IMG/VR virus record: IMGVR_UViG_3300045988_031779
Span: 1 to 37,395 of that record
DNA from: a virus
Lineage: Duplodnaviria > Heunggongvirae > Uroviricota > Caudoviricetes
Strand: one strand, 5' to 3'
DNA: 37,395 bases
Shown: piece by piece, positions 2,199 to 31,556 of the stretch
Layout of the letters: each line of letters begins with the position of its first letter
How positions within the stretch are numbered: position 1 is the first letter of the stretch
Program-made: the position numbers and the translations under genes
Notes under the pieces: generated by a model
The model's input: the letters and a program-made list of their open reading frames with translations, nothing else
What the model was told of the DNA's origin: nothing
The model's database searches: none

Positions 2199-2354
2199 AT
2201 GCGTTAAGCACAGCTATATCCGAATTATGGTGGGCTGGGCAGGGGTCCGAAAGGACGCCGGTACCACTTAGGCCGGTACGCCAACCTTGTCCAGTTCACC
2301 ACCAGTAATTGGCGTTGCGGTGGTGATTAAAATCACTAAGTGGAGATAACCACC

Positions 2355-4780: not shown

Positions 4781-4855
4781 CAGCGATACTGCCGCTGACG
4801 GCTCCCGCTGCGGTGGGCGTTCTGCGGATTCCCGCCCGGGCGGCGGTGGAATTCG

Positions 4856-9131: not shown

Positions 9132-11878
9132 TATTTGCCCCCTGCGTATATATTGCTCGGAAGGTAATTGGCTGAACCATAACCGAATGGTTTGGTCAGA
9201 TCTGGAGGAGTATATCCATCTTTATTGCTGAACTGCGGCAGCGGATTGCCTTCTCTCCGCACTCTAGCCTCATCAACACGCTGTTGCTGGAACTGAATGG
9301 TTTGCCTGTACATTGGAGATGTCAGCTGATCCGGCTTGAAACGAACAGGGAGACCATTTTCTCCAATATAATTTCTCGGTTCTATCGCTCCGTTTGCGTC
9401 AGGCTGTAAAACCATAACAGCATAACTCCTATCCCTTGCCGTAAGGCCATCAGAAACAAGTATTAAGTCCGTATCACTGCGAGGACCGCCAAAGGATTTT
9501 GATTTAAGCTCGCGTTTTTCCTGCTCCCACTGCCCCTGTATCCAGTTACCAGCACCATTATTTACTCCGTACAATGCCTCAGGTGCATACTTCATAACCT
9601 CTGCTTTGCCATTAACCGTAGAAACTCCCCAAGTGGTTCTGATCATGGCATTGGTCATTTTCTCAGCCTGTTCTGCATCGCCACCTGTCTGTACAAAGTT
9701 AGCATCGTAAATTGTCTGGTAATCTCGCTGATAGGCCGCATTTGATTTTCCTGGATCGGTAATATCCGGAGACCACGAACCAAAGGAAGTCAGACTGCTG
9801 GCGTTATTTTGTGCAGCAGTTGCCCTCGCCGCGACATATTTTTTGTCTCGCATGGCAGTGGAAAGCATCTGTTTCATTCGGTCATCCTGTTGGAACACCT
9901 GGCTGTAAGCCATATCAACAGCCTTATCCTCCGGCACGCCAGCGCGGGAATAATCGTAAACCTTGCCGTAAAATGCCATCGTACTTTTATCAAGTGTTGC
10001 CGCTGCCGCCGGATTATTATCGAATAACTGACCGTAGAATTTTGCCATCGGGACAACCAGCGCAGGATCTCTTGATGTTGCTCCACTGTTAAGCATTGTT
10101 TTAACCTGAGTTGGTATCATGCCGCTTTTAGTTGTGACGGTGACCAGTGTATTGATGCTCTGCGGATCAGATATGGAAAACGAAGGCGCGATATCCTGCG
10201 CGAAATAACGGTCTACCGCTGCCTGATTGTTTTTGTCGTTCGGGTCCAGCGGGAAGTTATTTTGCATTGAAGACACGAACCTGTTTCTTCCCTGCTGAAT
10301 CTCCCACTCCCTATCCATCTCTTTAAATTTGGCCTGCATTTTCTCCCAGCGTTGCTGGTTAGCTGCAAATCCAGGAGCGTTTGGATCCTGTGGACGTAAA
10401 CGTTCAAGAATGTCTTGTCGTCCTTCTGGAGTGAGGTCTTTAGCGGCACCAATGACACCTCCATATTGTATCTGCGCCTGCATATCCTTCCACTTCATAG
10501 CGCCAATGCGCGGACCATTGGCCCGGATAAAATCGTCCTCAGAAGGTAACTGCTCAGGTTTCAATCCTTCATCAAGGGCTGAATATGCATCTTTAACTAC
10601 GGTGCTAAGCTGGTCCGCATACTGCTGGCGGTACTGATTTCTCAGCTCATTAGCCTGCCTCAATGCCTGTATTTGCATTTGAGGGCTCATAGCATCAAAT
10701 GCCGCATTGCCCGTATAACGCTTAGGTGAATCAAGGTTAGTTAGACCAAGGGCTGCCGAGATACCAGTTTCAAGCTGTTCGGTGCTATAAGGCATACTGC
10801 CATTTTCGTGTTTAATAATCCCAGCACATAAAGCAGCTAGTGTCTTTGGGTTAGAGATATCAAGCTGATCATTCTCCCCAACACCAAGCTCACCACACAA
10901 TGCCCTAATATAAGCATCAGTATTATTACCATCACTAGCCGGAGCATAACGATTAACAATCTCGCTAACGGTGTCATAGCCTTGACGCTGGTAAGACAAC
11001 ATATTTTTACCCAACGCGCGGATTCCATGCTCAGGGGTAGCAAACGTTGCAAAACGTCCATCGCTACCGATCTGACCTTCCCACGGGTTAGATTTGCTCG
11101 CTTCAATATTACCAGGATTATTATTACGTAAACCACGAGCATCCAATGAATTACCATGTGACATTGCACGGCTCACACCGTCAAGATCCCCTGGCTCTCC
11201 ATTAACCTGAAGAAACTCGTTGTATTTTTGAGCGATATTTCCTATCCATGCTTGCTGCCCCATTTGTTCCTTGAGCTGAGTTTTCTGCTGAACACGCCAC
11301 TCATCAGGAAGCCCATGCGCATCAGCGTATTGATCAATAGATTCAAATCGCTGCTTGGCTAAATCGACAAATGCTTGGTTATCGCTATATAGCCCCGCAG
11401 ACTGAGTGACAGCCAATGCATTTCCTGACAAATACGTTTGATCTTGGAATTGCTGAAACTGCCCAACTTCATATCGACGTGCCTGATTGTAATAAGACTG
11501 CATAGACTGCTGGAGTTGAAAGGATAATTTATTCCTTTCCTCACTTTCAGGAATTGAGCCTAATAATGCCTGAGCCCTTTCCTGCATATTTTTCATAACA
11601 GCGTCACTCTGACCAAGAGCGTTTTTACCCTGTTTAGAAATCAGCCCATTTTCTGGGTTGTTAATCTGGTCATCTGCAAATTGGTTAAATTGCAGTAACG
11701 CCTCCTGGGCCATAGCAACATTCGCTTTCTGCCTGGCTTCACCATATGCCACCGCATACTGATCTGCGACATTCGCCAGCACCTGACCTGCTTGAGGAAC
11801 ATCGAAGGTTTGAAAACCACCGGTTTGCACACCACGACTTTGCACCTGGCGTCCGGATGTAGTAGGAACAACAGGCAT
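9131..11878 (-). CDS. Internal virion/core protein (T7 gp15-like position), 915 aa
   Basis: 1-nt overlap with flanking genes. Contains a conserved-looking segment LRNNNPGNIEASKSNPWEGQ...GIRALGKNMLSYQRQGYDTVSEIVNRYAP of unknown function. Assignment by order and size. Confidence 0.55.
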   Translation of the reverse strand: MPVVPTTSGRQVQSRGVQTGGFQTFDVPQAGQVLANVADQYAVAYGEARQKANVAMAQEALLQFNQFADDQINNPENGLISKQGKNALGQSDAVMKNMQERAQALLGSIPESEERNKLSFQLQQSMQSYYNQARRYEVGQFQQFQDQTYLSGNALAVTQSAGLYSDNQAFVDLAKQRFESIDQYADAHGLPDEWRVQQKTQLKEQMGQQAWIGNIAQKYNEFLQVNGEPGDLDGVSRAMSHGNSLDARGLRNNNPGNIEASKSNPWEGQIGSDGRFATFATPEHGIRALGKNMLSYQRQGYDTVSEIVNRYAPASDGNNTDAYIRALCGELGVGENDQLDISNPKTLAALCAGIIKHENGSMPYSTEQLETGISAALGLTNLDSPKRYTGNAAFDAMSPQMQIQALRQANELRNQYRQQYADQLSTVVKDAYSALDEGLKPEQLPSEDDFIRANGPRIGAMKWKDMQAQIQYGGVIGAAKDLTPEGRQDILERLRPQDPNAPGFAANQQRWEKMQAKFKEMDREWEIQQGRNRFVSSMQNNFPLDPNDKNNQAAVDRYFAQDIAPSFSISDPQSINTLVTVTTKSGMIPTQVKTMLNSGATSRDPALVVPMAKFYGQLFDNNPAAAATLDKSTMAFYGKVYDYSRAGVPEDKAVDMAYSQVFQQDDRMKQMLSTAMRDKKYVAARATAAQNNASSLTSFGSWSPDITDPGKSNAAYQRDYQTIYDANFVQTGGDAEQAEKMTNAMIRTTWGVSTVNGKAEVMKYAPEALYGVNNGAGNWIQGQWEQEKRELKSKSFGGPRSDTDLILVSDGLTARDRSYAVMVLQPDANGAIEPRNYIGENGLPVRFKPDQLTSPMYRQTIQFQQQRVDEARVRREGNPLPQFSNKDGYTPPDLTKPFGYGSANYLPSNIYAGGK

Positions 11879-18587: not shown

Positions 18588-18880
18588 TCCTGTTCACTGG
18601 CCTCTTTGGCCATCTTCAAATACTGTTCAGGGCAATGCGCCATAACGCGCTGAAACAGTTCCAGCGCCAGATTGCGTTGCCCCTCATTAAATGCCATTGC
18701 CATAGCGTCCATCGGTGAGATAGCGGAAAACACACGGCCTTTCTCCAGCACCGACCAGACAACGCGACGCCCCTGTTCACTGCTCATGACAAAGCGAATG
18801 TCATCAATTTCACGCTGCGCCATGTCACGTTGCTTACGGGCGTTTTCTTCTTTCAGTTGATCGTCTTCGTAATCTGTCAT
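18584..18880 (-). CDS. Hypothetical small head-assembly protein, 98 aa
   Basis: Coupled ORF between portal and scaffold genes (4-nt overlaps both sides). Confidence 0.45.
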   Translation of the reverse strand: MTDYEDDQLKEENARKQRDMAQREIDDIRFVMSSEQGRRVVWSVLEKGRVFSAISPMDAMAMAFNEGQRNLALELFQRVMAHCPEQYLKMAKEASEQE

Positions 18881-20556
18881 TGTGATTGCCCACCCTGACC
18901 ACTAACTGCATTCGCCATAGCTGACAAAACACTCGGATCCGAAGTTTTAGCTTCACTTAGCGTCTTGGCACCCTGTGCCGCCGCCATCCCCATCGCCATC
19001 ATTTGTTGCTGCTGTTGTTGCTGTGCCCGTTGCTGGCGAGCCTGCTCAACCTGTTCCTGCGGAACAATGACGGTTGGAGACACTCCGGACATATCAGCGA
19101 ATGCATCGATCGCCTGATCAACGTTGAGTTTGTCGAGAGCTTCTGGTTTCGCTTGCGCAAGTTGACCAATGAAGTTAACCGTGGACGCCAGACTGGACAG
19201 GCCGATAGACTTCTGCGCCTGAGCCATGACGGAAATGTATTCGACCTTCAGGGGCATGCCTTCCATCGCGTCAGGCGGTGGCGGCAGCATGTTTTTACGC
19301 ACCATCATCGAGAAAGAGCGATCAATGAGAGGATTAAGACATTCGTCGTTCAGGCGCTCCAGAACCGGCCCCAACATCAGAAGTTTTTCTTCTTTCATTT
19401 CGATCACCGCTTCCACAGGCATCGAGCGGGTATTGATGTTCTGCAACATCATGAACAGATCGACAAAGTAGGCGCTGTTAATGATTTGACGAGTGTCCTG
19501 AATGTCTGCCACCAAATCTGCTGTACTGGGGTTAACCAGATAAGCAGGCCTGAAACCATCCTGACCAGTAATCTGATCGATATACGTGATGTCGCCAGGA
19601 AGAAGGGAGGCACGCTGATTCTTGAGGGAAGTCGGAGCAACCATCGGCGGATTGGTAGCTTTATCAATCAACTGCGACTTGCGCTTCTGGAGAAGCTGCA
19701 ATGCCTTAACAGGTCCAAGCGCCAGCATACCCGGGCATGATGATCCATAAACATCTTCGCCGTTAACTTCCCAGCGCGGAGCCATAATTGGAAACTCATC
19801 GAATCCGGACTCACGCAACAACTTGTCGTTATCGCCACCAACCTCGTAATAAACCGATTTGAATGGCTTGTTCTTGCTATCCAGCTTCGATGTATCGCGG
19901 TCAATGTTCGGGTAAACCGAATGCATCACTTCAATCCACTTCTCGTAGGTGCCGCTTTCCCACATGCTTTTTACGGATTCGCTGACGTTATTTAGCCCGA
20001 ATTCCTGAACAAGCTGACGAACAGTCATAGAGAACTTGCGAAAACAGGTGTCCACACTGCCACGAGGTGAGTTAGCCAGGTAGTAACTGCCTATCGGGAA
20101 TGGCATTGTGCGAATGATGTCCTCGTCATCCTCCAGCACTGCCATTGCACCAGTGCTGTATGTGCCGAGGCTTCCGTATAACTGCGGCAGCGACTGATAG
20201 AGATTCGACTTATTGAACATATCGTTCATGCGGTTCTGCACCGCCTCAAGCCACAACTTAACAGGGCCATAATCCATCATTTCAGGATCTGGCGTAGCCA
20301 GGCGAAACCACGGACGCGCGGGGCTTGTGATGCCTGACATCATGCCGCTGGCGAGAGTGCGCGCCGCCATAGTCCCGGTCGAATCAATAATGCGTGTATT
20401 GCGTCGATCGTTACGGTTGACCTCAGAAGTCAGAAAGCGGGAACCACGCGGGTTGATGTAATCACTCAACTCGCGCCAGTGCGGCTCGAACGACTGACGC
20501 TCGCTTTCAAGTTGTGCGAACTGTTTGTTCAATCGCTCTTTAGTTGTTTCCGCCAT
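18877..20556 (-). CDS. Portal protein, 559 aa
   Basis: Size, position at the head of the structural block, Gln/Ala/Met-rich C-terminal tail typical of portal proteins. Confidence 0.7.
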   Translation of the reverse strand: MAETTKERLNKQFAQLESERQSFEPHWRELSDYINPRGSRFLTSEVNRNDRRNTRIIDSTGTMAARTLASGMMSGITSPARPWFRLATPDPEMMDYGPVKLWLEAVQNRMNDMFNKSNLYQSLPQLYGSLGTYSTGAMAVLEDDEDIIRTMPFPIGSYYLANSPRGSVDTCFRKFSMTVRQLVQEFGLNNVSESVKSMWESGTYEKWIEVMHSVYPNIDRDTSKLDSKNKPFKSVYYEVGGDNDKLLRESGFDEFPIMAPRWEVNGEDVYGSSCPGMLALGPVKALQLLQKRKSQLIDKATNPPMVAPTSLKNQRASLLPGDITYIDQITGQDGFRPAYLVNPSTADLVADIQDTRQIINSAYFVDLFMMLQNINTRSMPVEAVIEMKEEKLLMLGPVLERLNDECLNPLIDRSFSMMVRKNMLPPPPDAMEGMPLKVEYISVMAQAQKSIGLSSLASTVNFIGQLAQAKPEALDKLNVDQAIDAFADMSGVSPTVIVPQEQVEQARQQRAQQQQQQQMMAMGMAAAQGAKTLSEAKTSDPSVLSAMANAVSGQGGQSQ

Positions 20557-20570
20557 TTCAATGACTCCGG

Positions 20571-20777
20571 TTACTGACCAAGCAGCGTTTTACCGCTGGT
20601 ATTAGCGGTTGATGTGTCGCCCTGAGAACCGGTAAGCAGCGTAGAACTACGACCAGCAGCAGCGCGACGGCGACGAGTTTCTTCGTCGCGGGCATCAACA
20701 ACGGCGGCATCCTGCTCCTGTGGTGCTGCCTGAACTTCTGGTGTTGCAGGCACTGATGGTGAGCTACCCATGCACAT
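20571..20777 (-). CDS. Possible small acidic Ala-rich protein upstream of portal, 68 aa
   Basis: ATG at 20777 with GGAG about 9 nt upstream; low-complexity sequence; competing overlapping ORF 20558..20797 in another frame. Low confidence. Confidence 0.3.
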   Translation of the reverse strand: MCMGSSPSVPATPEVQAAPQEQDAAVVDARDEETRRRRAAAGRSSTLLTGSQGDTSTANTSGKTLLGQ

Positions 20778-20845
20778 ATCAATGACTCCGTACGCAATTA
20801 AATTACTACCAATTTAACCACATATGATTTATTTATCGTAGATAG

Positions 20846-20883
20846 TTGACATTTAACGCACAAATTATTACCTTTCAGGTAAC
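20846..20883 (+). promoter_or_regulatory. Rightward promoter candidate (TTGACA) overlapped by operator-like site 5 (ATTACC-tttca-GGTAAC, 20867..20883)
   Basis: Consensus -35 hexamer at 20846..20851; the palindrome sits where the -10 and transcript start would be; faces the tRNA and moron ORF. Confidence 0.4.
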
Positions 20884-21204
20884 CAAAGAGTTCATTCCGG
20901 TTACTAACCTGACTGGCTTGTCGTTAAATTGAACAGGTGGAGTGAGCTTTTATTTTGAGCAGTACGGCGTATGGCACATGCGCCGATAGCGGTCTGGATA
21001 CGTTTAAGGGGCACCCTCCCTGGCTGTGGCAAACGAACCAGGTAGCCGGAATGTGCAAGTCGAGCGGTTTTATTCCGCGCACGGGGATTCACCATCCCGG
21101 CGATTCGGTGTGACGCCTCGGAAGAGACGAGGGTACAACGATGAGAGCATTTATGGAGCCGCGACAAAGTGTGGCGCCTTAACAGGCTAAGTGCTCTCAG
21201 CGTT

Positions 21205-21281
21205 GTGGCATTAGCTCAGCTGGACAGAGCAACCGCTTTCTAAGCGGTTGGTCGCAGGTTCGAATCCTGCATGCCACGCCA
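21205..21281 (+). tRNA. tRNA-Arg (anticodon UCU)
   Basis: 77-nt cloverleaf folded by hand: 7-bp acceptor stem GTGGCAT/ATGCCAC, D arm GCTC/GAGC, anticodon stem ACCGC/GCGGT with loop TTTCTAA (anticodon TCT), T arm GCAGG-TTCGAAT-CCTGC, discriminator G, encoded CCA. Resembles enterobacterial argU-type tRNAs. Confidence 0.85.
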
Positions 21282-21324
21282 GAATCACGCCTAAGGACCG
21301 TGATGCCAGAAGTTCCAGGGGCTT

Positions 21325-21368
21325 GGCGGTGATGGTTTCCCTTGAAGGACTATCACCGCCCTTTTTAC
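21325..21368 (+). terminator. Intrinsic terminator after the tRNA (GGCGGTGAT ... ATCACCGCC followed by CTTTTT)
   Basis: 9-bp stem with a long loop followed by a T-run on the plus strand; a second GC hairpin plus T-run lies at 21445..21469 just before the ORF at 21479. Confidence 0.45.
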
Positions 21369-21478
21369 AGCATGACGCCATTGCGATGGCTTCATGCTGT
21401 AAACCAGTACAGCCACGGAAGGCATAACTCATTGCTTCCAGTTCGCCCGATTCGCCGGGCATTTTTTTTAGGTGAGAT

Positions 21479-21902
21479 CATGAAAACAGCCGACATGCTA
21501 GCTAAATATCTAAATGAATGGCCGTGCAAATATGTACGCATTGTTCAGGGTGATGACTCAATTTTTTATGGTGTTTTTGCAGGAAATGAAATGCTTTGTG
21601 AAGCAATTCCAGGTGAGCGACTTGCCGGGTTAACGCTTAGCGATGACCATGGAATAGGAGTTACTTGCCATGACTGGATTTCAGCGCAGAAAACTGAAAT
21701 GGAAAAAGGCAATGTGTTTGATATTTCTCGCGCTGTATACGCCAAAGAAAAAAGTGATGATGATTACATGCGCGAAAACTTATACAACATGAAGTTACAA
21801 TGCCTGGCTGAAGTGCTTAGTAAAAGATCTTTACTTGATGTGGTTGGTGCTGAGCAGGACGCCAAGGCAATCAACGCCGCATTCGATAAAATAACCTTCT
21901 AA
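21479..21902 (+). CDS. Hypothetical moron protein, 141 aa
   Basis: ATG at 21479 with GGTGAG 4 nt upstream (track ORF 21342..21902 is the same frame extended). Encoded on the strand opposite the flanking terminase and portal genes, downstream of the tRNA. No family recognised. Confidence 0.5.
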
Positions 21903-21905
21903 CGC

Positions 21906-21920
21906 CGTGACATGTCACAA
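21906..21920. repeat. 15-bp element CGTGACATGTCACAA (copy 1; contains the 12-bp palindrome GTGACATGTCAC)
   Basis: Exact second copy at 24171..24185; each copy is followed by a terminator-like hairpin. Confidence 0.6.
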
Positions 21921-21922
21921 AC

Positions 21923-21949
21923 AGCCAGCCTATGAGCTGGCTTTGTTTT
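21923..21949 (+). terminator. Intrinsic terminator (AGCCAGC-ctatga-GCTGGCT followed by TTGTTTT)
   Basis: 7-bp stem plus T-rich tail directly after the stop of 21479..21902 and the palindrome. Confidence 0.5.
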
Positions 21950-21992
21950 ATCCTCACCAGAGGATATCAACGACATTATCCCCACCAGCGGA

Positions 21993-23468
21993 TTAAGCAT
22001 AGGGATCGTAATCTGTGATGGCCTTGCCTTGCTGGTTCTGCTGACCGGGAATTCGCAGACGCTTAGACACAGGGAACGCAAACGTCAGCAGTAGCGCATC
22101 GCCTTTACCCGGTGAACGCCCAAGCCGCTCCTTGATATCTTCCTTCGGTTCGATAACGATTTTACCGTCCACTCGAACTTTGTACTCTGCCGCCGACAGG
22201 TCGTCTGCTGTTTCCTGGTCATCCAGCATGCCGCCCAGCCTCAGCCATGTCTTGCATGAATTGAACATCTCCCCACGCTTGTTGAGCATCTGCGGGTCAG
22301 TAGACGCGCCACCGAACGGAACAAGTTGCCATGTACGACCCCAGCCGTCACCGATTGACTTCAAACCGGTTCCGTAACCGAAGTCGATGAACACCGCGTC
22401 AGCCTGATACTGGTCTTCAAAGTCAGCGATACGCTTCGCCATAATCAGATCGTCGGTAGTCTTGTTGCCAGTCCACAGCACCTTACTGTGTAGCCCCTGC
22501 CGCAGGTATATCACAGCGTCATCAACGCCGGAGTATGCCGGGTCAACGCCGATTATCACCGGAGCATGTGCAACCTGCGCAGCGGTTACCACCCGTTTCA
22601 TTGCCTCGTCAGTAAGACCGGTAGGGATAAACTGCAATTCAGATGCATCAGGGAATATGCCACGCACACGGATTTTAACGAAGTCGCTGTCTTCCCCGTA
22701 GTCATCAACCCATTTCTGCAACTGCTGTTTGTTAGTGCCTTCCACCGTCCGGCTGTCAATCTGCGCAGTTTTCCAGCGGTGTTTATATTTGCGGAAACAT
22801 TCGCGAAAACGCCCGGTGTTACGTGTAGGGTTTCCGAACGCCACCCAAATAATCTCAGTGTCTTCGTCCGTAAGCGCACCCTCGGCAACTTCCCACACCA
22901 GATCCGCAATGTTCGACGCTTCATCAAACACCACGATGATGCGTTTGCGCTCGTTGTGTAGTCCGGCGAATGCCTCGGTGTTGTGCTCAGACCAGGGTAT
23001 TGCGTCAGCCCGCCACCGCTTGTCGTGCCCTAGGTCATTGCTGTACATCGCGGTAGCGGTACAGGTAAACCAGTCTTTCGTGATAGCAAGGTTCGACCAC
23101 TTGATAATTTCCGGCCAGGTCTTCGTTCGTAGCTGGTTGTCGGTGTTGGCGGTCACCACGACCTTACAATCCTCGCAAGTGGACATGCCCCAGTTGATCA
23201 GCATTGAGATGAATGCGGATTTACCAATACCGTGACCAGAAGCGCGTGCCAGCATAAGCGGCTGATAGCGCGTCTCTGGATTCTGCAGGTGATCACGTAT
23301 CTCTCGGAACGCATCAGCCTGCCACTGACGTGGGCCGGTGGCATGTGCCAGTTCAGTCCCCTCTTCCCCCCATGGGAACGCATAGAGGGCATAGCCAAGC
23401 GGATCGTGAGTGAACCCTGCAATATCCTCGATTAACTGCTCTTCAGGAGATAACGCTGTATCTGTCAC
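21993..23468 (-). CDS. Terminase large subunit, 491 aa
   Basis: Size, ATPase-like N-terminal region and acidic nuclease-like C-terminal region, 4-nt overlap with the small subunit gene upstream. Confidence 0.8.
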   Translation of the reverse strand: MTDTALSPEEQLIEDIAGFTHDPLGYALYAFPWGEEGTELAHATGPRQWQADAFREIRDHLQNPETRYQPLMLARASGHGIGKSAFISMLINWGMSTCEDCKVVVTANTDNQLRTKTWPEIIKWSNLAITKDWFTCTATAMYSNDLGHDKRWRADAIPWSEHNTEAFAGLHNERKRIIVVFDEASNIADLVWEVAEGALTDEDTEIIWVAFGNPTRNTGRFRECFRKYKHRWKTAQIDSRTVEGTNKQQLQKWVDDYGEDSDFVKIRVRGIFPDASELQFIPTGLTDEAMKRVVTAAQVAHAPVIIGVDPAYSGVDDAVIYLRQGLHSKVLWTGNKTTDDLIMAKRIADFEDQYQADAVFIDFGYGTGLKSIGDGWGRTWQLVPFGGASTDPQMLNKRGEMFNSCKTWLRLGGMLDDQETADDLSAAEYKVRVDGKIVIEPKEDIKERLGRSPGKGDALLLTFAFPVSKRLRIPGQQNQQGKAITDYDPYA

Positions 23469-24061
23469 TGATTGCCATCCTGACGTTCTTTCAGTCTCTT
23501 CCTGGCTGCCGCTATGCGATCAGCAATTGTCACATTCACATTAACATCCAGGCGTTCTTTGAATGCGTTGACGTCGACGTGCTTACCAATCAGTTCGAGG
23601 TTCTTCACCTTGTCAGGCCATTTAATTTTTTTGAGGATTGTCTCTATCGAATCCTCGTTCATGTTCATGATGGTCGATGACAGATCAAAGCCACTAAGCG
23701 TAGTGCGCCAGATTTTCGGCCACTCGCGGATTGGCTTAAGGCTCCCATCGTCGTTGAGGATGTCGATCACGTCCATCTGGTCGATCTCCACCAGGCGCAT
23801 GAGAACGTAATCAGCACTGACGCGCATTCGTTTGTTGCGCTCTTCCATCAGCTCGGCAATCCGTTTTTGAATGCGTTCATCGCGCATCATGAGACTGGCT
23901 TTAACTGCCGCTGTATTTGGGGAGAATCCTGCGTTAATCGCTGCCTGAGTCTGGTTTTCAGGCGTTTTGATGTATGACTGGCAATAAGCCTCCTGCATTG
24001 CTGTTAGTGGCTTAAATTGCGTTGATTTGCGTTTATAGGTTTTAGGTTCAGCAGGCATCAT
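23465..24061 (-). CDS. Terminase small subunit, about 198 aa
   Basis: Start preferred at the ATGATG at 24061; the track start at 24139 adds an N-terminal extension (TITTTVTITTVV) that is the translation of a direct DNA repeat and reads through a terminator. Motif PLTAMQEAYCQSYIKTPENQTQAAINAGFS resembles small-terminase N-terminal DNA-binding domains. Confidence 0.6.
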   Translation of the reverse strand: MMPAEPKTYKRKSTQFKPLTAMQEAYCQSYIKTPENQTQAAINAGFSPNTAAVKASLMMRDERIQKRIAELMEERNKRMRVSADYVLMRLVEIDQMDVIDILNDDGSLKPIREWPKIWRTTLSGFDLSSTIMNMNEDSIETILKKIKWPDKVKNLELIGKHVDVNAFKERLDVNVNVTIADRIAAARKRLKERQDGNQ

Positions 24062-24077
24062 AACCACCGTGGTAATA

Positions 24078-24094
24078 GTTACCGTTGTGGTAAT
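24078..24094. promoter_or_regulatory. Operator-like palindrome site 6: GTTACC-gttgt-GGTAAT, embedded in direct repeats GTGGTAATAGT
   Basis: 17-33 nt upstream of the small terminase start; direct repeats GTGGTAATAGT at 24069..24079 and 24087..24097. Confidence 0.4.
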
Positions 24095-24112
24095 AGTACC
24101 ATGCAAAATAAA

Positions 24113-24130
24113 GCCGCCATAGTTGGCGGC
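24113..24130 (-). terminator. Intrinsic terminator on the minus strand (GCCGCC-aactat-GGCGGC followed by TTTATTTTG)
   Basis: 6-bp GC stem with T-rich tail in the minus-strand sense, between the last early gene (24180..24518) and the terminase genes. Confidence 0.45.
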
Positions 24131-24170
24131 AGTATTCAAAACCCATCAAATTCATCATGCATAACCCACT

Positions 24171-24185
24171 CGTGACATGTCACAA
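24171..24185. repeat. 15-bp element CGTGACATGTCACAA (copy 2)
   Basis: Identical to 21906..21920; overlaps the stop of 24180..24518. Confidence 0.6.
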
Positions 24186-24518
24186 TATTAATTTCGTTTC
24201 ATGCCAGCCTTTAGTCACCCAGCATTGCGAGTCACCATTACACGGGCATGAATTCACAGGAACTCTCTCGCCGCACTTACCGCAACGTTTTCTGCTGATC
24301 GATTTTATACGCCCGTGCACGCGCGCATCATCCTGGCGGATCAGTAACGCTATATACTCACCAAATTCGTAAGGCGCACGCCCGGGGCGACGTGTGGCAC
24401 AGTTACGCTCCAGCATTTCAATTTCCTGAGCATCAAGCACAATCTCCAGCTTACGCACACCAGATGCAGCTTGTCTGGCTCCCTGAGCGGCTTTGCGCTC
24501 TGCTGCTGATTTAGCCAT
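24180..24518 (-). CDS. Zinc-ribbon protein, candidate late-gene regulator, 112 aa
   Basis: Basic N-terminal half and C-terminal Cys cluster RKRCGKCGERVPVNSCPCNGDSQC; last gene before the terminator and terminase block. Function inferred from position only. Confidence 0.5.
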   Translation of the reverse strand: MAKSAAERKAAQGARQAASGVRKLEIVLDAQEIEMLERNCATRRPGRAPYEFGEYIALLIRQDDARVHGRIKSISRKRCGKCGERVPVNSCPCNGDSQCWVTKGWHETKLIL

Positions 24519-24873
24519 TCTGATTTTCCTGCATCATGAGAAATACAATCATGGCGGCGCGGAGAACATTTTCATGCTCATGCTCCCAAATAGGGTTGGC
24601 AGAAGCACCGTGCAAACCGCTTTCGTTCCAGTCCCAGAGAATGTTAACTCCGTTATCAGCAATAATCGGCCATGCATCTGCTGGGTTTGCGCATGGGTTA
24701 AAGGATCCGCGCTCAACTTCTACTTCAACTGCGTCTCCGTTTACAATGTCTCCCTCAAATGAGATAAACACCATCGCGCCATTCTCACCTTCTTTGTAAT
24801 CCGGTGATCCGTTATGAATGGCTTCGAATACCGCCGCGTTAATTTCAAAATCACTTAACTGTGAATAGTCCAT
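24511..24873 (-). CDS. Hypothetical acidic protein, 120 aa
   Basis: Start preferred at ATG 24873 (AGGAGG 7 nt upstream, ATGA overlap with the upstream stop) rather than the track start at 25020. Confidence 0.5.
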   Translation of the reverse strand: MDYSQLSDFEINAAVFEAIHNGSPDYKEGENGAMVFISFEGDIVNGDAVEVEVERGSFNPCANPADAWPIIADNGVNILWDWNESGLHGASANPIWEHEHENVLRAAMIVFLMMQENQNG

Positions 24874-25754
24874 CACTTCACCTCCTGCGGCGGTTCTGGC
24901 AGCGGCATCCAGTACAAGGCGTTCCCTAACCACGATAAAGTGCCGTCGCTCAACTCCACGTATTCCCCTTGTACCTGTCCTGCCATATACTCGCCGTGCT
25001 TTGAATAAATTAAAATCCAATCATCTTGAGCGGGCATTCGCTCACTACAGCTTATCCAACCATCCGGAGTTACCGGAACTTGTGGAATGGCTGTCTGCTC
25101 TCGAACGTCATTAGGCGCTATAGGTTCTGCTGCCAACTGACTGGCATATTTGTTAATGGTAACGATAAGCTCTTGCTCAGCCTCATCCAGACAATCACCG
25201 ATACCTCGCCTGTCACCGTCAAAATCATCGAAATCGGCACGAATCCTGGCAACCTTCAGGATTGCGGACAACACCTCACTAGGAATTGCCGGATAGTTGG
25301 TTGACGTTTCCGCGATTTCCCGAAAATTATTGGTTGACGAATTCTTGTTTTCCCGAAAGTTTCCGGACTGAAGCATGGCGGCGCGGCAGGCGTTCCAGGC
25401 AAATAGTGCGGCTTCTTCCACTGAAGGCGGAGAGTATCGCTCGATAAACGCCTGTGCATTTGACAGCCTCCACTCATGAGGCAATACCGGCGCTGGCGGG
25501 GCGATGCGTCCAAGCAACTTATTTACCTCTTTCGCCATCGCGTCATATTTATCTAAATAGCGATTAGCTTCTAAGCAGACTCGGTGCATCTGATCTGAGT
25601 TAACTCGTTTAACGGGATCTGCTTCCAGCGATGCCAGTGCAATCCGTGCCAGTTCTTCCGCTTCTTCTGCTGGCAGTACAACGTTGCTACCCGGTCCGTA
25701 TGTTTCGCGCCACTGCTTGATTGTCAGCAGTCGCCCTTTGGTAATAGTGATCAT
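24873..25754 (-). CDS. Phage protein with DUF551-like C-terminal domain, 293 aa
   Basis: C-terminal WISCSERMP...LYWMPLPEPP matches the DUF551 signature common in enterobacterial prophages. Confidence 0.55.
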   Translation of the reverse strand: MITITKGRLLTIKQWRETYGPGSNVVLPAEEAEELARIALASLEADPVKRVNSDQMHRVCLEANRYLDKYDAMAKEVNKLLGRIAPPAPVLPHEWRLSNAQAFIERYSPPSVEEAALFAWNACRAAMLQSGNFRENKNSSTNNFREIAETSTNYPAIPSEVLSAILKVARIRADFDDFDGDRRGIGDCLDEAEQELIVTINKYASQLAAEPIAPNDVREQTAIPQVPVTPDGWISCSERMPAQDDWILIYSKHGEYMAGQVQGEYVELSDGTLSWLGNALYWMPLPEPPQEVK

Positions 25755-26266
25755 GCCGCGTTTCCTTCTTTCTTATTAACAATCACACCGTCATATATTT
25801 CATTAAGGTGCCCTCTCAACTCCATGCGCCTTAATGCAGATAACATGTAATCGCATTCAACCTGCTTATTCCCGGTAAATGGCTTATCGTCAGGATTACC
25901 CCAACAGCAATTACCCCTGGGCCATCCATGTACTTTCCGTACTCTTCCGTTAACAACGTGAAGTAATCCCCAGCCGGGAGGTAAATCCTCAACTGAAATA
26001 ATTTCCGGCTCACTAATAAAGAATCGCCAGTCGCCCATGCCAAGTGAGGGATTTTTACGGAAACGCTTTTTTCTATCTGCCAACAAGTCAGCACGAGAAC
26101 ACTTCGCCTCTATCAGGCATGATGCTGAATTTCTGAATCCCATAGCATCTGGCTGTTCTCCGGTACTGGTTACAGCAACAAAGCGGTCATGAAAGCAAAC
26201 CTTGAACCCGTTGCGCTTAAGGAACTTGTACGCAATCTGACAGAGTTCGTGGTGTGTTAACGCCAT
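25751..26266 (-). CDS. Putative PD-(D/E)XK-fold nuclease, 171 aa
   Basis: Motif QPD...CLIEAKCS consistent with a PD-x(n)-E-x-K active site; 4-nt overlap with the next gene. Fold assignment is inference. Confidence 0.4.
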   Translation of the reverse strand: MALTHHELCQIAYKFLKRNGFKVCFHDRFVAVTSTGEQPDAMGFRNSASCLIEAKCSRADLLADRKKRFRKNPSLGMGDWRFFISEPEIISVEDLPPGWGLLHVVNGRVRKVHGWPRGNCCWGNPDDKPFTGNKQVECDYMLSALRRMELRGHLNEIYDGVIVNKKEGNAA

Positions 26267-26267
26267 A

Positions 26268-26843
26268 TCACTCTCCTTTGATGCGAATGTCAGCGACGCG
26301 TAATGCGTGTTCTAGGTCAATCAGGTAAAGCCAACTGCCATTTTCTTTAGGTATCATGACTTGTCGCTCATCTGCATTTATGGGGTGTCCATATCGAAGG
26401 TCGTAGCGAGTCGGTAATTGAACTTCCCGCGCTTCCAGTTCAGCAATACGCTTGCACCCATCAGAGATAACTCCCTCGTAATACTCGCGCTGCTCGTTGA
26501 GTTTTGATTTTGTCTCCTCAAGCTCAACGCGCAGCTTCCCAACCGTAAGCGCAATATCCTCGTTCTCCTGGTCGCGGGATTTGATGTATTGCTGGTTTCT
26601 TTCCCGTTCTTCCAGAAGCGCCTGCACTACTTCAGGGTTGAAAGCTGCGATATAACGAGCGTTGTTCTCTGCGTTTTTCTGTTCGTCGAATCCTGGCCAG
26701 TCGACAATATCTCCGTGATGATTATCACCTGGTGTGTGCACGGCGTACGTGCCGTATTTGCCCGGCGAAATAAATGCGACCCATTCGCCTTGTGTTGCCT
26801 GTTTTGCTATCTCACGCAGTGCCTGGTAATTAATTTCGCTCAC
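26268..26843 (-). CDS. Ead/Ea22-like protein, 191 aa
   Basis: N-terminus MSEINYQALREIAKQATQGEWVA typical of Ead/Ea22-like proteins; coiled-coil centre. Confidence 0.6.
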   Translation of the reverse strand: MSEINYQALREIAKQATQGEWVAFISPGKYGTYAVHTPGDNHHGDIVDWPGFDEQKNAENNARYIAAFNPEVVQALLEERERNQQYIKSRDQENEDIALTVGKLRVELEETKSKLNEQREYYEGVISDGCKRIAELEAREVQLPTRYDLRYGHPINADERQVMIPKENGSWLYLIDLEHALRVADIRIKGE

Positions 26844-27643
26844 TGGTTGCCTCCTTTGCGAAGCTCTGCGGCAAAATCAGTCGCATGCTCACCGAGTAGT
26901 TTCCAGTTATCGCGTATATCAGATGCAAGCGACTGTTCGGATTTTGAGTTACATTTCTGTGCAAACATCTCCAATCCCTGCGCCCGCACTTCAGCCAGGC
27001 ATTTGCGAAACTCGGAAACGTACTGTTCGACGCTCATTCCCCAGCTAAGTGGACATTCATTGAATGTTTCGCCTTCGTGCTCTTCATCAGGTAGCTCTTT
27101 GGTAAAGAACTCACGTTCAATGGCGTGGAGTGTGTCAGCAAAACGACGTAAGTTACTCAAACCTGTCGTAATGGAGAATTCAGGAGCATCACATCCGACG
27201 CCCATCTGCTGATAAACGGCGGTTTTGAAGGCCTTAAGCCCCGCATTCTCCGCTGCCAGCGCCGTGAAATTACCCTCCAGCTCTGCAATGCGCTGTTTTG
27301 CGGTATCAAGTTCAATCGATAATTTTTCCAACTGCTCTTTATGCTTCTTGTATTCCTGATATGCGTGCCAGGACTGACCTTTGCGCACACTATCAGTAAT
27401 ATCAGTAATCTGTTCTGGTGTTAGCGTGGTCAGTGGCTGTGCTGGGAAAATCAGCACTTTCCCGGAATCCCAATCAAAACCAGCGTGAATTGACTGAACC
27501 TCAACTGAGGGTGTTGAACCAATGCTGCCAGGCGAATGAACAACGATCGTTACATCCATATCGCGACGATGGCTGTGGTTGTTGGACAAAATACGATTCA
27601 ACAAAATACGATTCACCAACTCAGAAAATTTGGAGAATTTCAT
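26840..27643 (-). CDS. Ead/Ea22-like coiled-coil protein, about 267 aa
   Basis: Shares the ALAAENAGLKA coiled-coil motif with 28059..28775. Start preferred at ATG 27643 (GAGG 7 nt upstream); track start 27655 is TTG. Confidence 0.5.
   Translation of the reverse strand: MKFSKFSELVNRILLNRILSNNHSHRRDMDVTIVVHSPGSIGSTPSVEVQSIHAGFDWDSGKVLIFPAQPLTTLTPEQITDITDSVRKGQSWHAYQEYKKHKEQLEKLSIELDTAKQRIAELEGNFTALAAENAGLKAFKTAVYQQMGVGCDAPEFSITTGLSNLRRFADTLHAIEREFFTKELPDEEHEGETFNECPLSWGMSVEQYVSEFRKCLAEVRAQGLEMFAQKCNSKSEQSLASDIRDNWKLLGEHATDFAAELRKGGNQ
27586..27615. repeat. Perfect tandem duplication of 15 bp (ACAAAATACGATTCA x2)
   Basis: Direct read; lies in the 5' end of the ORF 26840..27643 and encodes NRILLNRIL. 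Confidence 0.8.
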
Positions 27644-27651
27644 GCGGAGCC

Positions 27652-28062
27652 TCAATATGCAAAATAGACCGTTGCCACGCCGTTATAGTGATCAAACGAT
27701 ACGGCGTTTACTTCATAACTGGCCGGGAGCTTCGAGCCAAGAACGTATCCGGGCCACGTTTTCCATGGAATTTCTCTATTCTCACTACCCCCATATACCG
27801 TACATCCAAGTGAACCTACAGCTTCATTAGAACGCGTGCCGCACGTTATGAATCCCAGATTTTGCTTACTGCTCTTAATGGTGATTGAGTGAACGCTGGC
27901 TGATGCATTAGCAGCACGCTGTGCCTGTTGGTTTGCGATATTCGCAGAGTTCGCAGCAGCTACAGCAGCCGTAGTCGCGGCGGTAGAGGCTACAATAGCT
28001 GCTGAAGCATGCACTTGTTGGATATTCACCAACAATGCCGCGATAAAAATCATCTTCTTCAC
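27652..28062 (-). CDS. Secreted protein with signal peptide and Ala/Thr/Asn-rich low-complexity region, 136 aa
   Basis: N-terminus MKKMIFIAALLVNIQQVHA is Sec-signal-like; C-terminal domain with two Cys; no family recognised. Confidence 0.5.
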   Translation of the reverse strand: MKKMIFIAALLVNIQQVHASAAIVASTAATTAAVAAANSANIANQQAQRAANASASVHSITIKSSKQNLGFITCGTRSNEAVGSLGCTVYGGSENREIPWKTWPGYVLGSKLPASYEVNAVSFDHYNGVATVYFAY

Positions 28063-28775
28063 TTGTCAGCTCCTTTGCGAATCTGTTCCGCCCATTCTTC
28101 AAGGGATTTCTCCGCATATTCACCAGACAGGCCATCAATCGGATGCGCTTCATTAGCCAACTCTTCTTTCGCTGACAAAATCATGCGTGTAACGTCGAAA
28201 ACTTCACGCAAAGACTTATTGATAAATCCGTGATTGAACGCAGCAGCAAGACGGCTGGCGGTATAGTTAACTCCCTCGTTGCGTGCTTCCGCACGAATTT
28301 CAGCCATGAAAGCGTCGGTGGCTGGGGTTTCGATATTAGGCAGAAGCGCATAATCGCAAATCGTATCGATCGCAGGATCACAACAGTCATCCTCGTTGCG
28401 TGGTCGTTCGCCAACCTTCGTTGACGATTGCATGATGATTCCCCAGCAAATACTATCGACCTCTTCGCTCCATCCATCGCAAGCATCACCGCGATAGTCG
28501 TCGATTGCAGCCTCAGCCGATTCGATAGCTTCCTCAGCAGTTTTGTGCCATTCGAAATTATGCTCAGAGCCATATGAGAAATATGAATGTCCCGCCTTCA
28601 GCCCCGCATTCTCCGCCGCCAGCGCATTAGCACGCACCAGTTGCACTTCCAGTTGCGTTGCCAAATCGCTGATCAGCTTTGCCACACTGCGCATATCAAC
28701 GGCACCACATTCTGCTTTCAGTTCCGAAGCCATCTCATGCCCGGCGGAAACTAACCCTTTGATATTACTTTCCAT
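28059..28775 (-). CDS. Ead/Ea22-like protein, 238 aa
   Basis: Coiled-coil ALAAENAGLKA motif shared with 26840..27643; acidic and Trp-rich C-terminal region. Confidence 0.55.
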   Translation of the reverse strand: MESNIKGLVSAGHEMASELKAECGAVDMRSVAKLISDLATQLEVQLVRANALAAENAGLKAGHSYFSYGSEHNFEWHKTAEEAIESAEAAIDDYRGDACDGWSEEVDSICWGIIMQSSTKVGERPRNEDDCCDPAIDTICDYALLPNIETPATDAFMAEIRAEARNEGVNYTASRLAAAFNHGFINKSLREVFDVTRMILSAKEELANEAHPIDGLSGEYAEKSLEEWAEQIRKGADK

Positions 28776-28836
28776 CTTTACCCTCGCTTATCCACATAAC
28801 TTATTGATTACATTGATAACTAAAAAGATCGTCGAT

Positions 28837-29184
28837 TCAGAACTCTTCGATGTTCCAGCCACCACCTGCTTTCTTTGGCTTAACCGTTACCCCGATGATT
28901 CGGAACGGATACTGATCTGCGGCGACTTTGGTTTTCACTCTGGCGTCATCGGTCCAGAATCCCCCTTTCACTTCGTGCAGTTCCACCTCGCCGGTGGCGA
29001 GCATCACAGCAAAATCTGGCGTATAGAACGTGTTGTCAGCTAACCGCAGCTTGATACCCTCAAATCGATACCAGACGATTTCTCCTGCACGTTTACGCAG
29101 CTCAAGGTGCTGGCAATACGCAGATTCTGTTTTGTTCATCTGGCCTGTTTTGAGTCGACCAAGAGCCTGCATCTGTTTTCTCAT
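28837..29184 (-). CDS. DUF1064-like putative PD-(D/E)XK nuclease, 115 aa
   Basis: Motifs YTPDF and ELHEVKG fit a D...E-x-K nuclease core; first gene downstream of the replication genes. Confidence 0.45.
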   Translation of the reverse strand: MRKQMQALGRLKTGQMNKTESAYCQHLELRKRAGEIVWYRFEGIKLRLADNTFYTPDFAVMLATGEVELHEVKGGFWTDDARVKTKVAADQYPFRIIGVTVKPKKAGGGWNIEEF

Positions 29185-29186
29185 GA

Positions 29187-29203
29187 TTTACCCCTTAGGT
29201 AAT
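29187..29203. promoter_or_regulatory. Operator-like palindrome site 7: TTTACC-cctta-GGTAAT
   Basis: 4-20 nt upstream of the start codon at 29184. Confidence 0.45.
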
Positions 29204-29248
29204 TAAAAACCACATAAGACACGAAATCAATAGATTTTAGAATATTTT

Positions 29249-29265
29249 ATTACCCCTAAGGTAAT
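29249..29265. promoter_or_regulatory. Operator-like palindrome site 8: ATTACC-cctaa-GGTAAT
   Basis: Perfect palindrome about 45 bp from site 7, in the gap between the P-like gene and the DUF1064-like gene. Confidence 0.5.
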
Positions 29266-29302
29266 TATCGAGACGTAAAAAAAATGCGCTATCGCGCTGG
29301 TA

Positions 29303-30103
29303 TTACTTGATAAATCCTGACGCCTTTCCCCGCCTGTATTCCTCCATCAGCCACTGCGCCGGTGTTATTCCCCCAAGGGTGGCGGCGTTAGGCATGCACC
29401 CGAAACTTCGCCCTGGTGGATGGTAAACGTCTCTCCCTGTGTCCGGAGGCGTACTCATGGGTTCTGGCTTTGCCTGTATGCTGATCACCGGATCGGGTAT
29501 CTGCTGTCCGGAAGCCACCTTTTTCGCCCAATCATCGAGCAGCCTGCGCGCGTGTTTCTCAACCTCAATCTCGCTAAGCTGGCGCTGATACATTGCACGG
29601 CGGGTATCACATACGACCCAGTACATAACCGGATGTCGCCACGGGAATCTTTCGGGACCACCAGGATATAAACTTTTTTCCTTGCTGTACCGGTGAAACT
29701 CCGCCATCACATCGTCAATGGTGACGCCAAGAACCATCTTGCTGTCTTTACACCACTTGATGAATTGCCCTGGCGACGGCCAGAACGGAGACTCACTGGC
29801 GCGGGCGTGGCGCATACCAGCAGAAACCTGTTCACGGGTTCGGATCCCACCTTCGGCAAACGCAGCAATCCACTGCTGTTTTGCAGCAACTTCCTGCTCT
29901 GGCGTCTTCAGGTTGGTTACCACTGCCGCCGGAAACAGTTGTTTCAGCTGTTTGAAAAGGGCATCAACAAGCCTCTCTGCTGACATGTTCACCACGTTGT
30001 CATTGTTGGTGTACTGATGCTCATAACCTGACATGCGAGAAAGGGCTTCTCCGTCACGGTTTTGTATCGCGGTAAAAACGTTGTTCACAAGAAATCCTCC
30101 CAT
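29303..30103 (-). CDS. Replication protein P-like helicase loader, 266 aa
   Basis: Segment KQQWIAAFAEGGIRTREQVSAGMRHARASESPFWPSPGQFIKWC aligns by eye with lambda P (RRQWVLAFRENGITTMEQVNAGMRVARRQNRPFLPSPGQFVAWC); directly follows the O-like gene. The start overlaps the O-like gene by 19 nt and may be downstream. Confidence 0.7.
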   Translation of the reverse strand: MGGFLVNNVFTAIQNRDGEALSRMSGYEHQYTNNDNVVNMSAERLVDALFKQLKQLFPAAVVTNLKTPEQEVAAKQQWIAAFAEGGIRTREQVSAGMRHARASESPFWPSPGQFIKWCKDSKMVLGVTIDDVMAEFHRYSKEKSLYPGGPERFPWRHPVMYWVVCDTRRAMYQRQLSEIEVEKHARRLLDDWAKKVASGQQIPDPVISIQAKPEPMSTPPDTGRDVYHPPGRSFGCMPNAATLGGITPAQWLMEEYRRGKASGFIK

Positions 30104-31219: not shown

Positions 31220-31236
31220 ATTACCTTTGAGGTACG
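31220..31236. promoter_or_regulatory. Operator-like palindrome site 9: ATTACC-tttga-GGTACG
   Basis: One mismatched half-site; in the gap between the cro-like gene end and the zinc-ribbon gene. Confidence 0.35.
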
Positions 31237-31290
31237 AATAGATATGAAAAGACCGCCGGATGGCGGTCTACAGAGGGTTGTGGCTGGATA

Positions 31291-31521: not shown

Positions 31522-31556
31522 AGCTATTGCCTGATATTTATTTCAGATAATAAATA

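Follow-up and report, generated by a model that had tools for sequence, protein, structure and literature searches.

What is a short transcription unit doing on the opposite strand among the packaging genes of a tailed phage, and what is the RNA with which it begins? The question is raised by a 37,395-nt stretch of DNA, IMG/VR virus record IMGVR_UViG_3300045988_031779 (hereafter the window), which is a phiV10/epsilon15-like (Uetakevirus) prophage of Escherichia coli. Between its portal and large terminase subunit genes runs a 1.1-kb plus-strand unit, which a sequence-only reading had described as an insertion, possibly a moron, consisting of a TTGACA promoter overlapped by an operator-like palindrome, an untranslated leader, an argU-like tRNA-Arg(UCU), two terminator-like hairpins, an open reading frame (ORF) with its own ribosome-binding site (RBS), and a closing terminator. 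All of these features are present where that reading placed them, with one correction, to the length of the ORF. By themselves, the tRNA and the ORF are unremarkable, and relatives already have them annotated; phiV10-type records list the tRNA-Arg. The part of the locus most worth follow-up is the leader, a structured RNA that belongs to a family without a catalogue entry and most likely controls early transcription.

The leader is a structured RNA with a pseudoknot

The sequence-only reading had described the leader simply as untranslated. It is instead a conserved structured RNA of about 240 nt (20963..21205) with a pseudoknot, supported by covariation and made up of a core and a long 3' stem. 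Its parts are as follows.

20963..21135, plus strand: leader RNA core (MAFFT alignment, covariance model)
20965..20985, plus strand: hairpin P1, loop UGGCACA
20993..20996 with 21039..21042, plus strand: base of hairpin P2
21041..21059, plus strand: invariant 19-mer, GGTAGCCGGAATGTGCAAG
21084..21098, plus strand: hairpin P4, loop UUCACCA
21090..21093 with 21107..21110, plus strand: pseudoknot, CACC of the P4 loop with GGUG
21116..21132, plus strand: hairpin P5, loop GAAGAGA
21136..21151 with 21190..21205, plus strand: long 3' stem, CAACGAUGAGAGCAUU with AGUGCUCUCAGCGUUG, with a variable apical insert (compensatory variants by eye)

A first alignment of nine copies contained long invariant runs between hairpins of variable length and sequence, and the invariant 19-mer, used as a query, retrieved more than 120 IMG/VR contigs. 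When 28 diverse copies were aligned with MAFFT without reference to any structure (alignment A2), 97.9% of the cells formed standard pairs, compared with 25-50% when the partners were slid relative to each other; in ten pairs both partners had changed, and the covariation score was higher than that of any of 500 shuffles. This alignment supports four hairpins (P1, the base of P2, P4 and P5) and the pseudoknot, which covaries from CACC/GGUG to AACC/GGUU. The window copy scores 146.5 bits with the resulting covariance model, R1, and the 78 distinct sequences aligned to R1 are again 97.9% paired with double changes at 11 of 20 pairs, in an alignment that was made to the model and so leans towards its structure. 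G-U pairs are abundant on one strand only (U8-G18 in 27 of the 28 sequences, U31-G91 in all 28), and the functional strand is therefore the plus strand, the same as that of the tRNA.

The long 3' stem also varies in a compensatory manner: strand pairs read by eye, with no formal count, include GAGAGCA/UGCUCUC, AAGAGCA/UGCUCUU, AAGGCG/CGCC, AAGCGCA/UGCGCU, GAGAGUA/UACUCUC and GAGCGCAC/GUGCGCUC. Its apical insert differs even among close relatives, and the G at its end (21205) doubles as the first nucleotide of the tRNA. A second pseudoknot is possible between the P1 loop (GGCACA) and UGUGC of the 19-mer, all five pairs of which are invariant.

A protein-coding explanation for the conservation of the leader was rejected in view of the compensatory changes, the strand-specific G-U pairs, the invariant 19-mers, and hairpin lengths that are not confined to multiples of three. 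We also note that ORFs have been annotated over the RNA or the tRNA in three phage records, namely phiV10p04 (L001 3012..3263, over the tRNA), mEp460_037 (L002 2943..3311) and Ayreon 0037 (L256 3561..3680). Because they differ in strand and frame, these hypothetical proteins are probably spurious calls.

An uncatalogued RNA found in unrelated phages

Searching Rfam 15 with positions 20700..22000 at E <= 5 returned the tRNA as the sole match and left the leader RNA unmatched, and a lambdoid leader had no match at E <= 10. RefSeq has no annotation beneath the matching stretch in 2120 E. coli records, and no description of the RNA was found in the literature searched. When the leader alone was used in BLAST, matches at ~71-82% identity were obtained, nearly all of them in stretches without an annotated feature. 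They include lambdoid phages (mEp460, cdtI, Ayreon, 1720a-02, and Stx2c and some Stx2a phages), the phages P1, P7, D6 and SJ46, and phages of Klebsiella, Enterobacter and Stenotrophomonas, the last of which take the range of the RNA outside the Enterobacterales. At least four unrelated phage backbones carry it.

The 180-nt core is present in 1840 of 5426 complete E. coli genomes (34%), in up to four copies per genome and with 554 of its places on plasmids. It is also found in 591 PLSDB plasmids, mostly non-mobilizable and from Escherichia, Salmonella, Klebsiella and Shigella, which we interpret as P1-like. Among GTDB species representatives, 14 loci were confirmed by the covariance model, all in Enterobacterales (Citrobacter, Kosakonia, Kluyvera, Phytobacter, Klebsiella, Escherichia, Superficieibacter and Erwinia); the representatives had been pre-selected by a weak pattern of 17 specified bases, whose matches were mostly due to chance before filtering by the model. 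One viral contig, L028, has two tandem cores ~800 nt apart on its minus strand (3990..4154 and 4797..4959), of which the second has non-compensatory substitutions in the otherwise invariant 19-mer and in GGCG, and is probably decaying, to judge from these changes.

The RNA lies directly behind early promoters

Hairpin P1 begins 7-97 nt past the -10 element of at least eight types of strong promoter, most with operator-like palindromes of their own, and a promoter score of at least 9 out of 12 was obtained for 47% of 72 distinct upstream contexts and 8% of shuffles. In mEp460, the order is the cI stop codon, a terminator, two OL-type operators that share a family with the OR operators of this phage, a promoter, the RNA, an intrinsic terminator and the first early-left gene. 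Stx2a_WGPS2 and 1720a-02 have the same layout, the former with a non-coding leader of 780 nt followed by an operon that ends in xis and int, and in the Ayreon record the depositors had, independently, placed a terminator followed by a promoter immediately before the RNA. In phage P1, the RNA lies between trnI and ban, within the C1-controlled ban operon, and starts 14 nt after trnI.

A terminator-like hairpin separates the RNA from the first ORF in 75 of 114 distinct loci. The first ORFs themselves depend on the lineage: phrog_204 with DUF2303, a 137-aa protein followed by a ParB-like protein, recombination genes, an excisionase-like protein, a Tad2-like protein, or ban. None has a known antiterminator domain or is visibly N-like, and an N-like protein partner was therefore rejected. 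Likewise, no N gene is annotated in the four annotated lambdoid carriers that we examined (mEp460, Stx2a_WGPS2, Ayreon and 1720a-02). Antitermination of the boxA/Nus type was also rejected, as a strict boxA pattern is present in only one of 118 leaders. In two loci, L090 and L034, the core is followed directly by a hairpin and a perfect rrn-type boxA (TGCTCTTTAACAA), a rare arrangement.

A probably repressor-controlled early promoter in the window

In the window, the RNA is preceded by a promoter, by an operator-like palindrome that overlaps its -10 element, and by a further conserved segment.

20846..20882, plus strand: early promoter and operator, with -35 TTGACA (20846..20851), a 17-nt spacer and -10 TACCTT (20869..20874), read from the sequence
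20868..20882, plus strand: operator palindrome, TTACCTTTCAGGTAA
20883..20962, plus strand: 5' leader segment (GTCGTTAAAT ... GGTGGAGTGAGC), conserved in Uetakevirus loci

The promoter and its overlapping palindrome were thus borne out by reading the sequence. A consensus promoter scan did not call the promoter, because the -10 element matches just three of six consensus positions. An identical TTGACA-N17-TACCTT with the same operator precedes the leader RNA at other homologous loci.

The palindrome belongs to a family, TTACC-N5-GGTAA, with 15 copies in the window where 0.86 would be expected. These lie at 858, 1978, 2071, 3138, 20868, 24079, 29188, 29250, 31221-31620, 32318 and 32380, in clusters that flank a helix-turn-helix (HTH) repressor-like gene (31676..32257), with others preceding an antirepressor region described below. 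Their distribution suggests a dispersed repressor-operator network, like the C1 operators of phage P1. Since the palindrome over the -10 element is one of these 15 copies clustering at the repressor gene, the promoter is most likely repressed in the lysogen, and the unit is probably expressed early in lytic growth or after induction. The suggestion that the unit is a lysogenic-conversion moron fits poorly with this arrangement, which makes expression in the lysogen unlikely.

The motif of the 20883..20962 segment recurs within long-stem inserts elsewhere (in L078 and L043, for example), and the segment looks like the 3' half of a long-stem unit whose partner has been lost.

The RNA is part of a modular cassette

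Downstream of the core, the loci share a common order: one or more long stems, GUGG (which starts a tRNA-Arg or a tRNA-like module), a small conserved hairpin (AAUCACGCCUNAGGACCGUGAU), and the terminator-like hairpin T1, with a second, T2, in the Uetakeviruses. In the window, the elements that follow the leader RNA are the following.

21205..21281, plus strand: tRNA-Arg(UCU), argU-like (ARAGORN; Rfam RF00005, 71.1 bits against a gathering score of 29)
21283..21304, plus strand: small hairpin AATCACGCCTAAGGACCGTGAT; many lineages have this hairpin behind the tRNA or tRNA-like module
21325..21366, plus strand: T1, a 14-bp terminator-like hairpin (21325..21360) followed by CTTTTT (terminator scan)
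21445..21469, plus strand: T2, a GC-rich 5-bp hairpin (21445..21460) followed by ATTTTTTTT, directly before the RBS (terminator scan)
21470..21902, plus strand: RBS AGGTGAGATC and 140-aa ORF (ATG at 21480, stop codon ending at 21902)
21923..21950, plus strand: final terminator, hairpin AGCCAGC CTATGA GCTGGCT (21923..21942) followed by TTGTTTTAT, convergent with the large terminase gene

The terminator scan thus recovered both of the internal hairpins and the closing terminator, and phiV10 has an annotated rho-independent terminator at the place equivalent to the latter. The T1 sequence is conserved (UUGGCGGU ... ACCGCC UUUU ACA), with CCCUUGA in its loop, and T2 is conserved in Uetakevirus relatives. 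In a promoter scan of the window, no promoter-like site was found between T1/T2 and the ORF. We also observed a YCCUUR motif in the apical loops of both P2 (20993..21042) and T1 (21325..21360) at many loci, as CCCUUGA, UCCUUAAUG or CUCCUUGG, and the start of T1, UGGCGGU, resembles the invariant AGCGGUC ahead of P2. A lineage-specific similarity between the two loops was considered and rejected (5.9 nt within and 5.3 nt between lineages), leaving only the shared YCCUUR.

Whereas GUGG begins a real tRNA-Arg in the Uetakeviruses, elsewhere it begins GUGGUGA-AU-GCGC/AGGCUGAU/GCGC ... GCCGG/AGAUCAGCA/CCGGC-CACCAC-AAC, in which an acceptor-like GUGGUGA/CACCAC encloses D-arm-like and T-arm-like hairpins and a large insert that replaces the anticodon arm. 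Modules of this kind are present in lambdoid and other leaders (L002 3236..3425; L254 3296..3430; L205; L011), and T-arm-like hairpins (GGUUCGAUUCC) are found inside some of the long-stem inserts. To describe the module as tRNA-like is an interpretation, as its helices are invariant and lack covariation support; ARAGORN did not call the modules at normal thresholds, and its output at relaxed thresholds was dominated by noise.

Epsilon15 has a deleted form of the cassette. In its locus (L005 ~2549..2700, compared with window positions 20963..21360), P1 and the 5' half of P2 now run straight into the 3' half of T1, the junction being the GGUUCCCUUGA motif that the P2 and T1 loops share; the remaining 3' portion of the core is missing, as are the long stem and the tRNA. 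The promoter region, T1/T2 and the cargo gene are kept. The depositors of the epsilon15 record annotated an "RNaseIII mRNA processing" feature, upstream of the core and without stated evidence.

The unit is a conserved feature of the genus

The genes on either side of the unit are shown below, the two terminase subunits being named from the annotation of near-identical relatives.

18877..20556, minus strand: portal gene (Pfam Head-tail_con, E = 3e-187)
20571..20777, minus strand: small gp3-like ORF
21993..23468, minus strand: large terminase subunit gene
23465..24139: small terminase subunit gene

Over the 1.3 kb around the unit, phage vB_EcoP_PAS61 and many E. coli chromosomes share 97-98% identity with the window, and phiV10 matches 68% of the same 1.3 kb at 97.5%. 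The unit had been taken for an insertion. As it is found at the corresponding position in phiV10, PAT1, Tyrion, SPN1S-like phages and Klebsiella phages, with epsilon15 as a deleted form, a comparison of these genomes indicates that it is a conserved feature of the genus and not a recent insertion. With its opposite strand and its own promoter and terminator, the unit resembles a moron in its layout; the sporadic presence among close relatives that marks morons is lacking, the unit being genus-wide.

The tRNA and its possible role in codon supply

ARAGORN finds an intact cloverleaf for the tRNA-Arg(UCU), with an encoded CCA and no disrupted stem, and the argU-like identity given to it earlier is upheld. 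The acceptor is paired as GTGGCAT/ATGCCAC, with a 3' GCCA. Compared with K-12 argU, the D and T arms are identical and the acceptor and anticodon stems differ; the tRNA has U32, where argU and most phage relatives have C32.

Codon-usage compensation had been proposed, and the codon counts make it plausible. In a crude set of window ORFs, AGA and AGG are used at 7.0 and 6.5 per 1000 codons, respectively, compared with ~2 and ~1 in E. coli K-12, and therefore the tRNA plausibly supports the AGA/AGG-rich phage genes. These codons are concentrated in the tail/injection genes (5742..11878) and in some early genes, with 19 AGA and 23 AGG codons in the two largest tail/injection-type ORFs (minus strand); the portal, capsid-region and terminase ORFs have almost none. 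The other role proposed for the tRNA, a counter to host tRNA depletion, found neither support nor contradiction.

Other phages have argU-like tRNA-Arg(UCU) genes with the same anticodon (O157 typing phages 9 and 10, phiv142-3, and argN/argO of Stx phages), which also share the argU-type cloverleaf and the richness of their phage genomes in AGA/AGG. The tRNA of the window differs in being fused to a structured leader, under what appears to be a repressor-controlled early promoter, between packaging genes, whereas the tRNAs of Stx phages lie upstream of stx and downstream of the Q gene.

A variable cargo slot with a possible link to anti-defence

The ORF with its own RBS is real, although it encodes 140 amino acids and not the 141 first reported. 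It was said to have no recognisable family, and this holds in that it has no match in Pfam or PADLOC; it is nevertheless conserved, belonging to phrog_4846 and having 111 homologue clusters across the Enterobacteriaceae, all named hypothetical. An AlphaFold2 model (predicted local distance difference test score, pLDDT, 80) has no match in the PDB by fold, nor does the protein by profile, and the BFVD matches of the model are uncharacterised phage proteins only.

The content of this slot varies. It is a Phage_gp49_66 protein in phiV10, a Tad2-like protein in a Klebsiella relative, and another protein of unknown function in PAT1. Tad2-like proteins (PF11195, Thoeris anti-defence) are the first ORF after the cassette both in Klebsiella phage ST512-KPC3phi13.3 (L009 2511..3032) and in P1-like elements (L044). 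The window thus resembles the anti-defence cargo slots that hold Tad2/DUF2829 genes in having a variable small ORF in a fixed slot behind a conserved regulatory module, and differs from them in that its 140-aa protein matches no Pfam, PADLOC or PDB entry. A Tad2-like or other known anti-defence identity for this ORF was not borne out (no PF11195, no other anti-defence family and no fold match). The earlier guess of an anti-defence role is a fair one, given the Tad2-like proteins in the same slot of the Klebsiella relative and after the element in P1-like elements. The 140-aa protein is possibly an early accessory protein, with anti-defence suggested by slot association alone, and the cassette may mark anti-defence cargo slots.

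How the leader RNA may act

The RNA is the first to be made from early promoters whatever genes come after it, terminators usually lie between it and the operon, no conserved protein is encoded beside it, and N is not annotated in the four lambdoid carriers examined. On these grounds, and as a working hypothesis held at rather less than even chances, we favour a cis-acting element comparable to put, which would let RNA polymerase read through terminators. The sigma-70 promoter, whose -10 element lies under a repressor operator, would fire after induction or infection, and the first RNA transcribed would be the structured leader of ~240 nt (core 20963..21135 and stem 21136..21205). Cleavage by RNase P at the 5' end of the tRNA would separate the two RNAs. 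The leader would act in cis on the polymerase that made it, so that T1 and T2 are read through and the cargo ORF is expressed; in lambdoid carriers without an annotated N, the same step would open the whole early-left operon. The tRNA would meanwhile supply AGA decoding for AGA/AGG-rich phage genes.

The model for this proposal is phage HK022, whose put sites are ~70 nt long, form two stem-loops and occur twice per genome, with putL just downstream of PL, and by themselves make polymerase resistant to terminators (PMC9378689). Like put, the leader lies just past the early promoter of lambdoid phages that seem to lack N-mediated antitermination, with terminators before the early genes and no adjacent dedicated protein. 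It differs in having a ~170-nt core and a 70-nt stem, at least five helices, a pseudoknot, and a tRNA or tRNA-like module after it, and in being found once per region searched. There is no sequence resemblance to put, and size, architecture and copy number place the RNA outside the put family. The covariance model had no match in HK022 positions 23000..30000, a stretch not confirmed to contain putL. The leader could define a new class of RNA-only processive antiterminator, the third with put and EAR but structurally unrelated to them, about three times the size of put, with a pseudoknot and coupling to a tRNA or tRNA-like processing module. It would gate early genes that include int/xis and anti-defence cargo in lambdoid prophages without an annotated N (some Stx2a and Stx2c phages), in P1-like phage-plasmids and in Uetakeviruses, which together are present in about one third of sequenced E. 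coli genomes; this larger claim we regard as less likely than not. A conserved core with variable peripheral hairpins is also reminiscent of an aptamer, and in comparison with riboswitches we note that the first terminator is 130-200 nt downstream, with the tRNA between, and that the downstream genes are mutually unrelated.

Several observations weigh against put-like antitermination. The stem of the final terminator (21923..21942) is just 7 bp, and a resistant polymerase would run antisense into the terminase gene. In phage P1, a distance of 2.3 kb separates the RNA from Pban, the RNA follows immediately on trnI, and a terminator ahead of ban was looked for and not found; CRISPR interference (CRISPRi) on neighbouring genes of the ban operon caused no defect in lytic growth in the laboratory (PMC10695390). 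About one third of the loci have no predicted terminator ahead of the first ORF, and a strong T1 so soon behind the RNA-tRNA module would also suit a stand-alone gene for an RNA that acts in trans. One copy was found per genome region searched, as against put sites in both early operons of HK022, and no second copy, as in a rightward early operon, was found in 26 kb of Stx2a_WGPS2. Epsilon15, finally, retains the promoter region, T1/T2 and the cargo gene although most of the RNA and the tRNA are gone. Because of this loss and the CRISPRi result, the element is probably dispensable for lytic growth in the laboratory.

What else, then, could the RNA be? It might be a stable RNA cut out by tRNA-processing enzymes, by RNase P on its downstream side and by tRNA 3' processing after an upstream tRNA as in phage P1, which would act in trans on a host factor as a decoy or sponge for an RNA-binding protein, a nuclease or a defence system, with T1 as a true terminator and the downstream genes served by leaky read-through. 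The final base of the terminal stem coincides with the first nucleotide of the tRNA; nearly every canonical 3' stem is followed by GUGG and tRNA-Arg or a tRNA-like acceptor, D-arm and T-arm; the phage P1 copy begins right behind trnI; and the RNA-tRNA module is followed by a conserved strong hairpin with a U-tract (T1). Invariant runs as long as the 19-mer hint at a binding partner that is itself conserved, and the neighbouring cargo includes Tad2-like anti-defence genes. There are precedents for such an arrangement, in which a structured non-coding RNA adjoins a putative RNase P substrate in the form of a tRNA or tRNA-like element, in the C4 RNA of P1 and P7, which is matured by RNase P, and in the maturation of MALAT1-mascRNA. 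The C4 RNA at 2223..2306 of the window is, however, unrelated in sequence to the leader RNA, whose processing is predicted only. Moreover, the RNA is placed directly after early promoters and before whole operons (int/xis in the lambdoid phages), so that transcription must pass it; it has no known partner; 10-12 nt complementarity to the window, with trivial self-matches removed, is not above shuffled expectation and so offers no antisense targets; and the lambdoid tRNA-like reading depends on invariant helices, with neither covariation nor an ARAGORN call at normal thresholds. A trans-acting RNA is the main rival explanation, less likely than not and somewhat less likely than the cis-acting reading.

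Less probable still is a passive or processing role, in which the leader would shield a long untranslated 5' region from Rho and RNases or provide RNase III and RNase P sites that uncouple the tRNA from the stability of the mRNA. Non-coding RNA of 500-780 nt does lie ahead of early genes, the ~18-bp long stem resembles an RNase III substrate, the epsilon15 region carries its RNaseIII annotation, and the modules are repeated and shuffled between phages; that annotation has no stated evidence and lies upstream of the core, however, and a shield would need no invariant runs of 19 nt, no pseudoknot, and no core shared among phages of Escherichia, Klebsiella, Enterobacter and Stenotrophomonas. As for the view with which this analysis began, of a recent moron expressed by the prophage for lysogenic conversion or codon supply with the leader as a spacer, it accounts for the strand of the unit, for its own promoter and terminator, and for a cargo ORF that varies between relatives as in moron slots. 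We consider it very improbable, since the whole genus has the unit, the -10 element lies under an operator, the leader is a conserved structured RNA common to unrelated phages, and the ORF is preceded by two terminators and by no promoter of its own that could be detected.

A probable antirepressor region elsewhere in the window

Apart from the unit, Rfam identifies isrK (67.7 bits) and C4 antisense RNA (66 bits; 2223..2306) in tandem within 2122..2306 on the plus strand. A Bro-N antirepressor-like ORF (2340..3065, plus strand) is directly downstream, and the operator palindromes at 1978 and 2071 lie beside this region, which looks like the antirepressor control of the P1 immI type, here in a Uetakevirus.

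Implications

The leader is a large, covariation-supported RNA that is present in very well-studied phages (P1 and Stx2 phages) and in about one third of complete E. coli genomes, and that has neither an Rfam family nor a RefSeq annotation. If it controls read-through of early terminators, as in the put-like reading that we tentatively favour, it would explain how early-left transcription is launched in lambdoid phages without an annotated N, Shiga-toxin phages among them, and would offer a handle on prophage induction. If it is instead a processed, trans-acting RNA, it would be a candidate for an RNA of host takeover or anti-defence. On either reading, the RNA and its associated modules would form a portable "early leader cassette" and a marker of the slots in which anti-defence genes (Tad2-like ones, for example) are carried.

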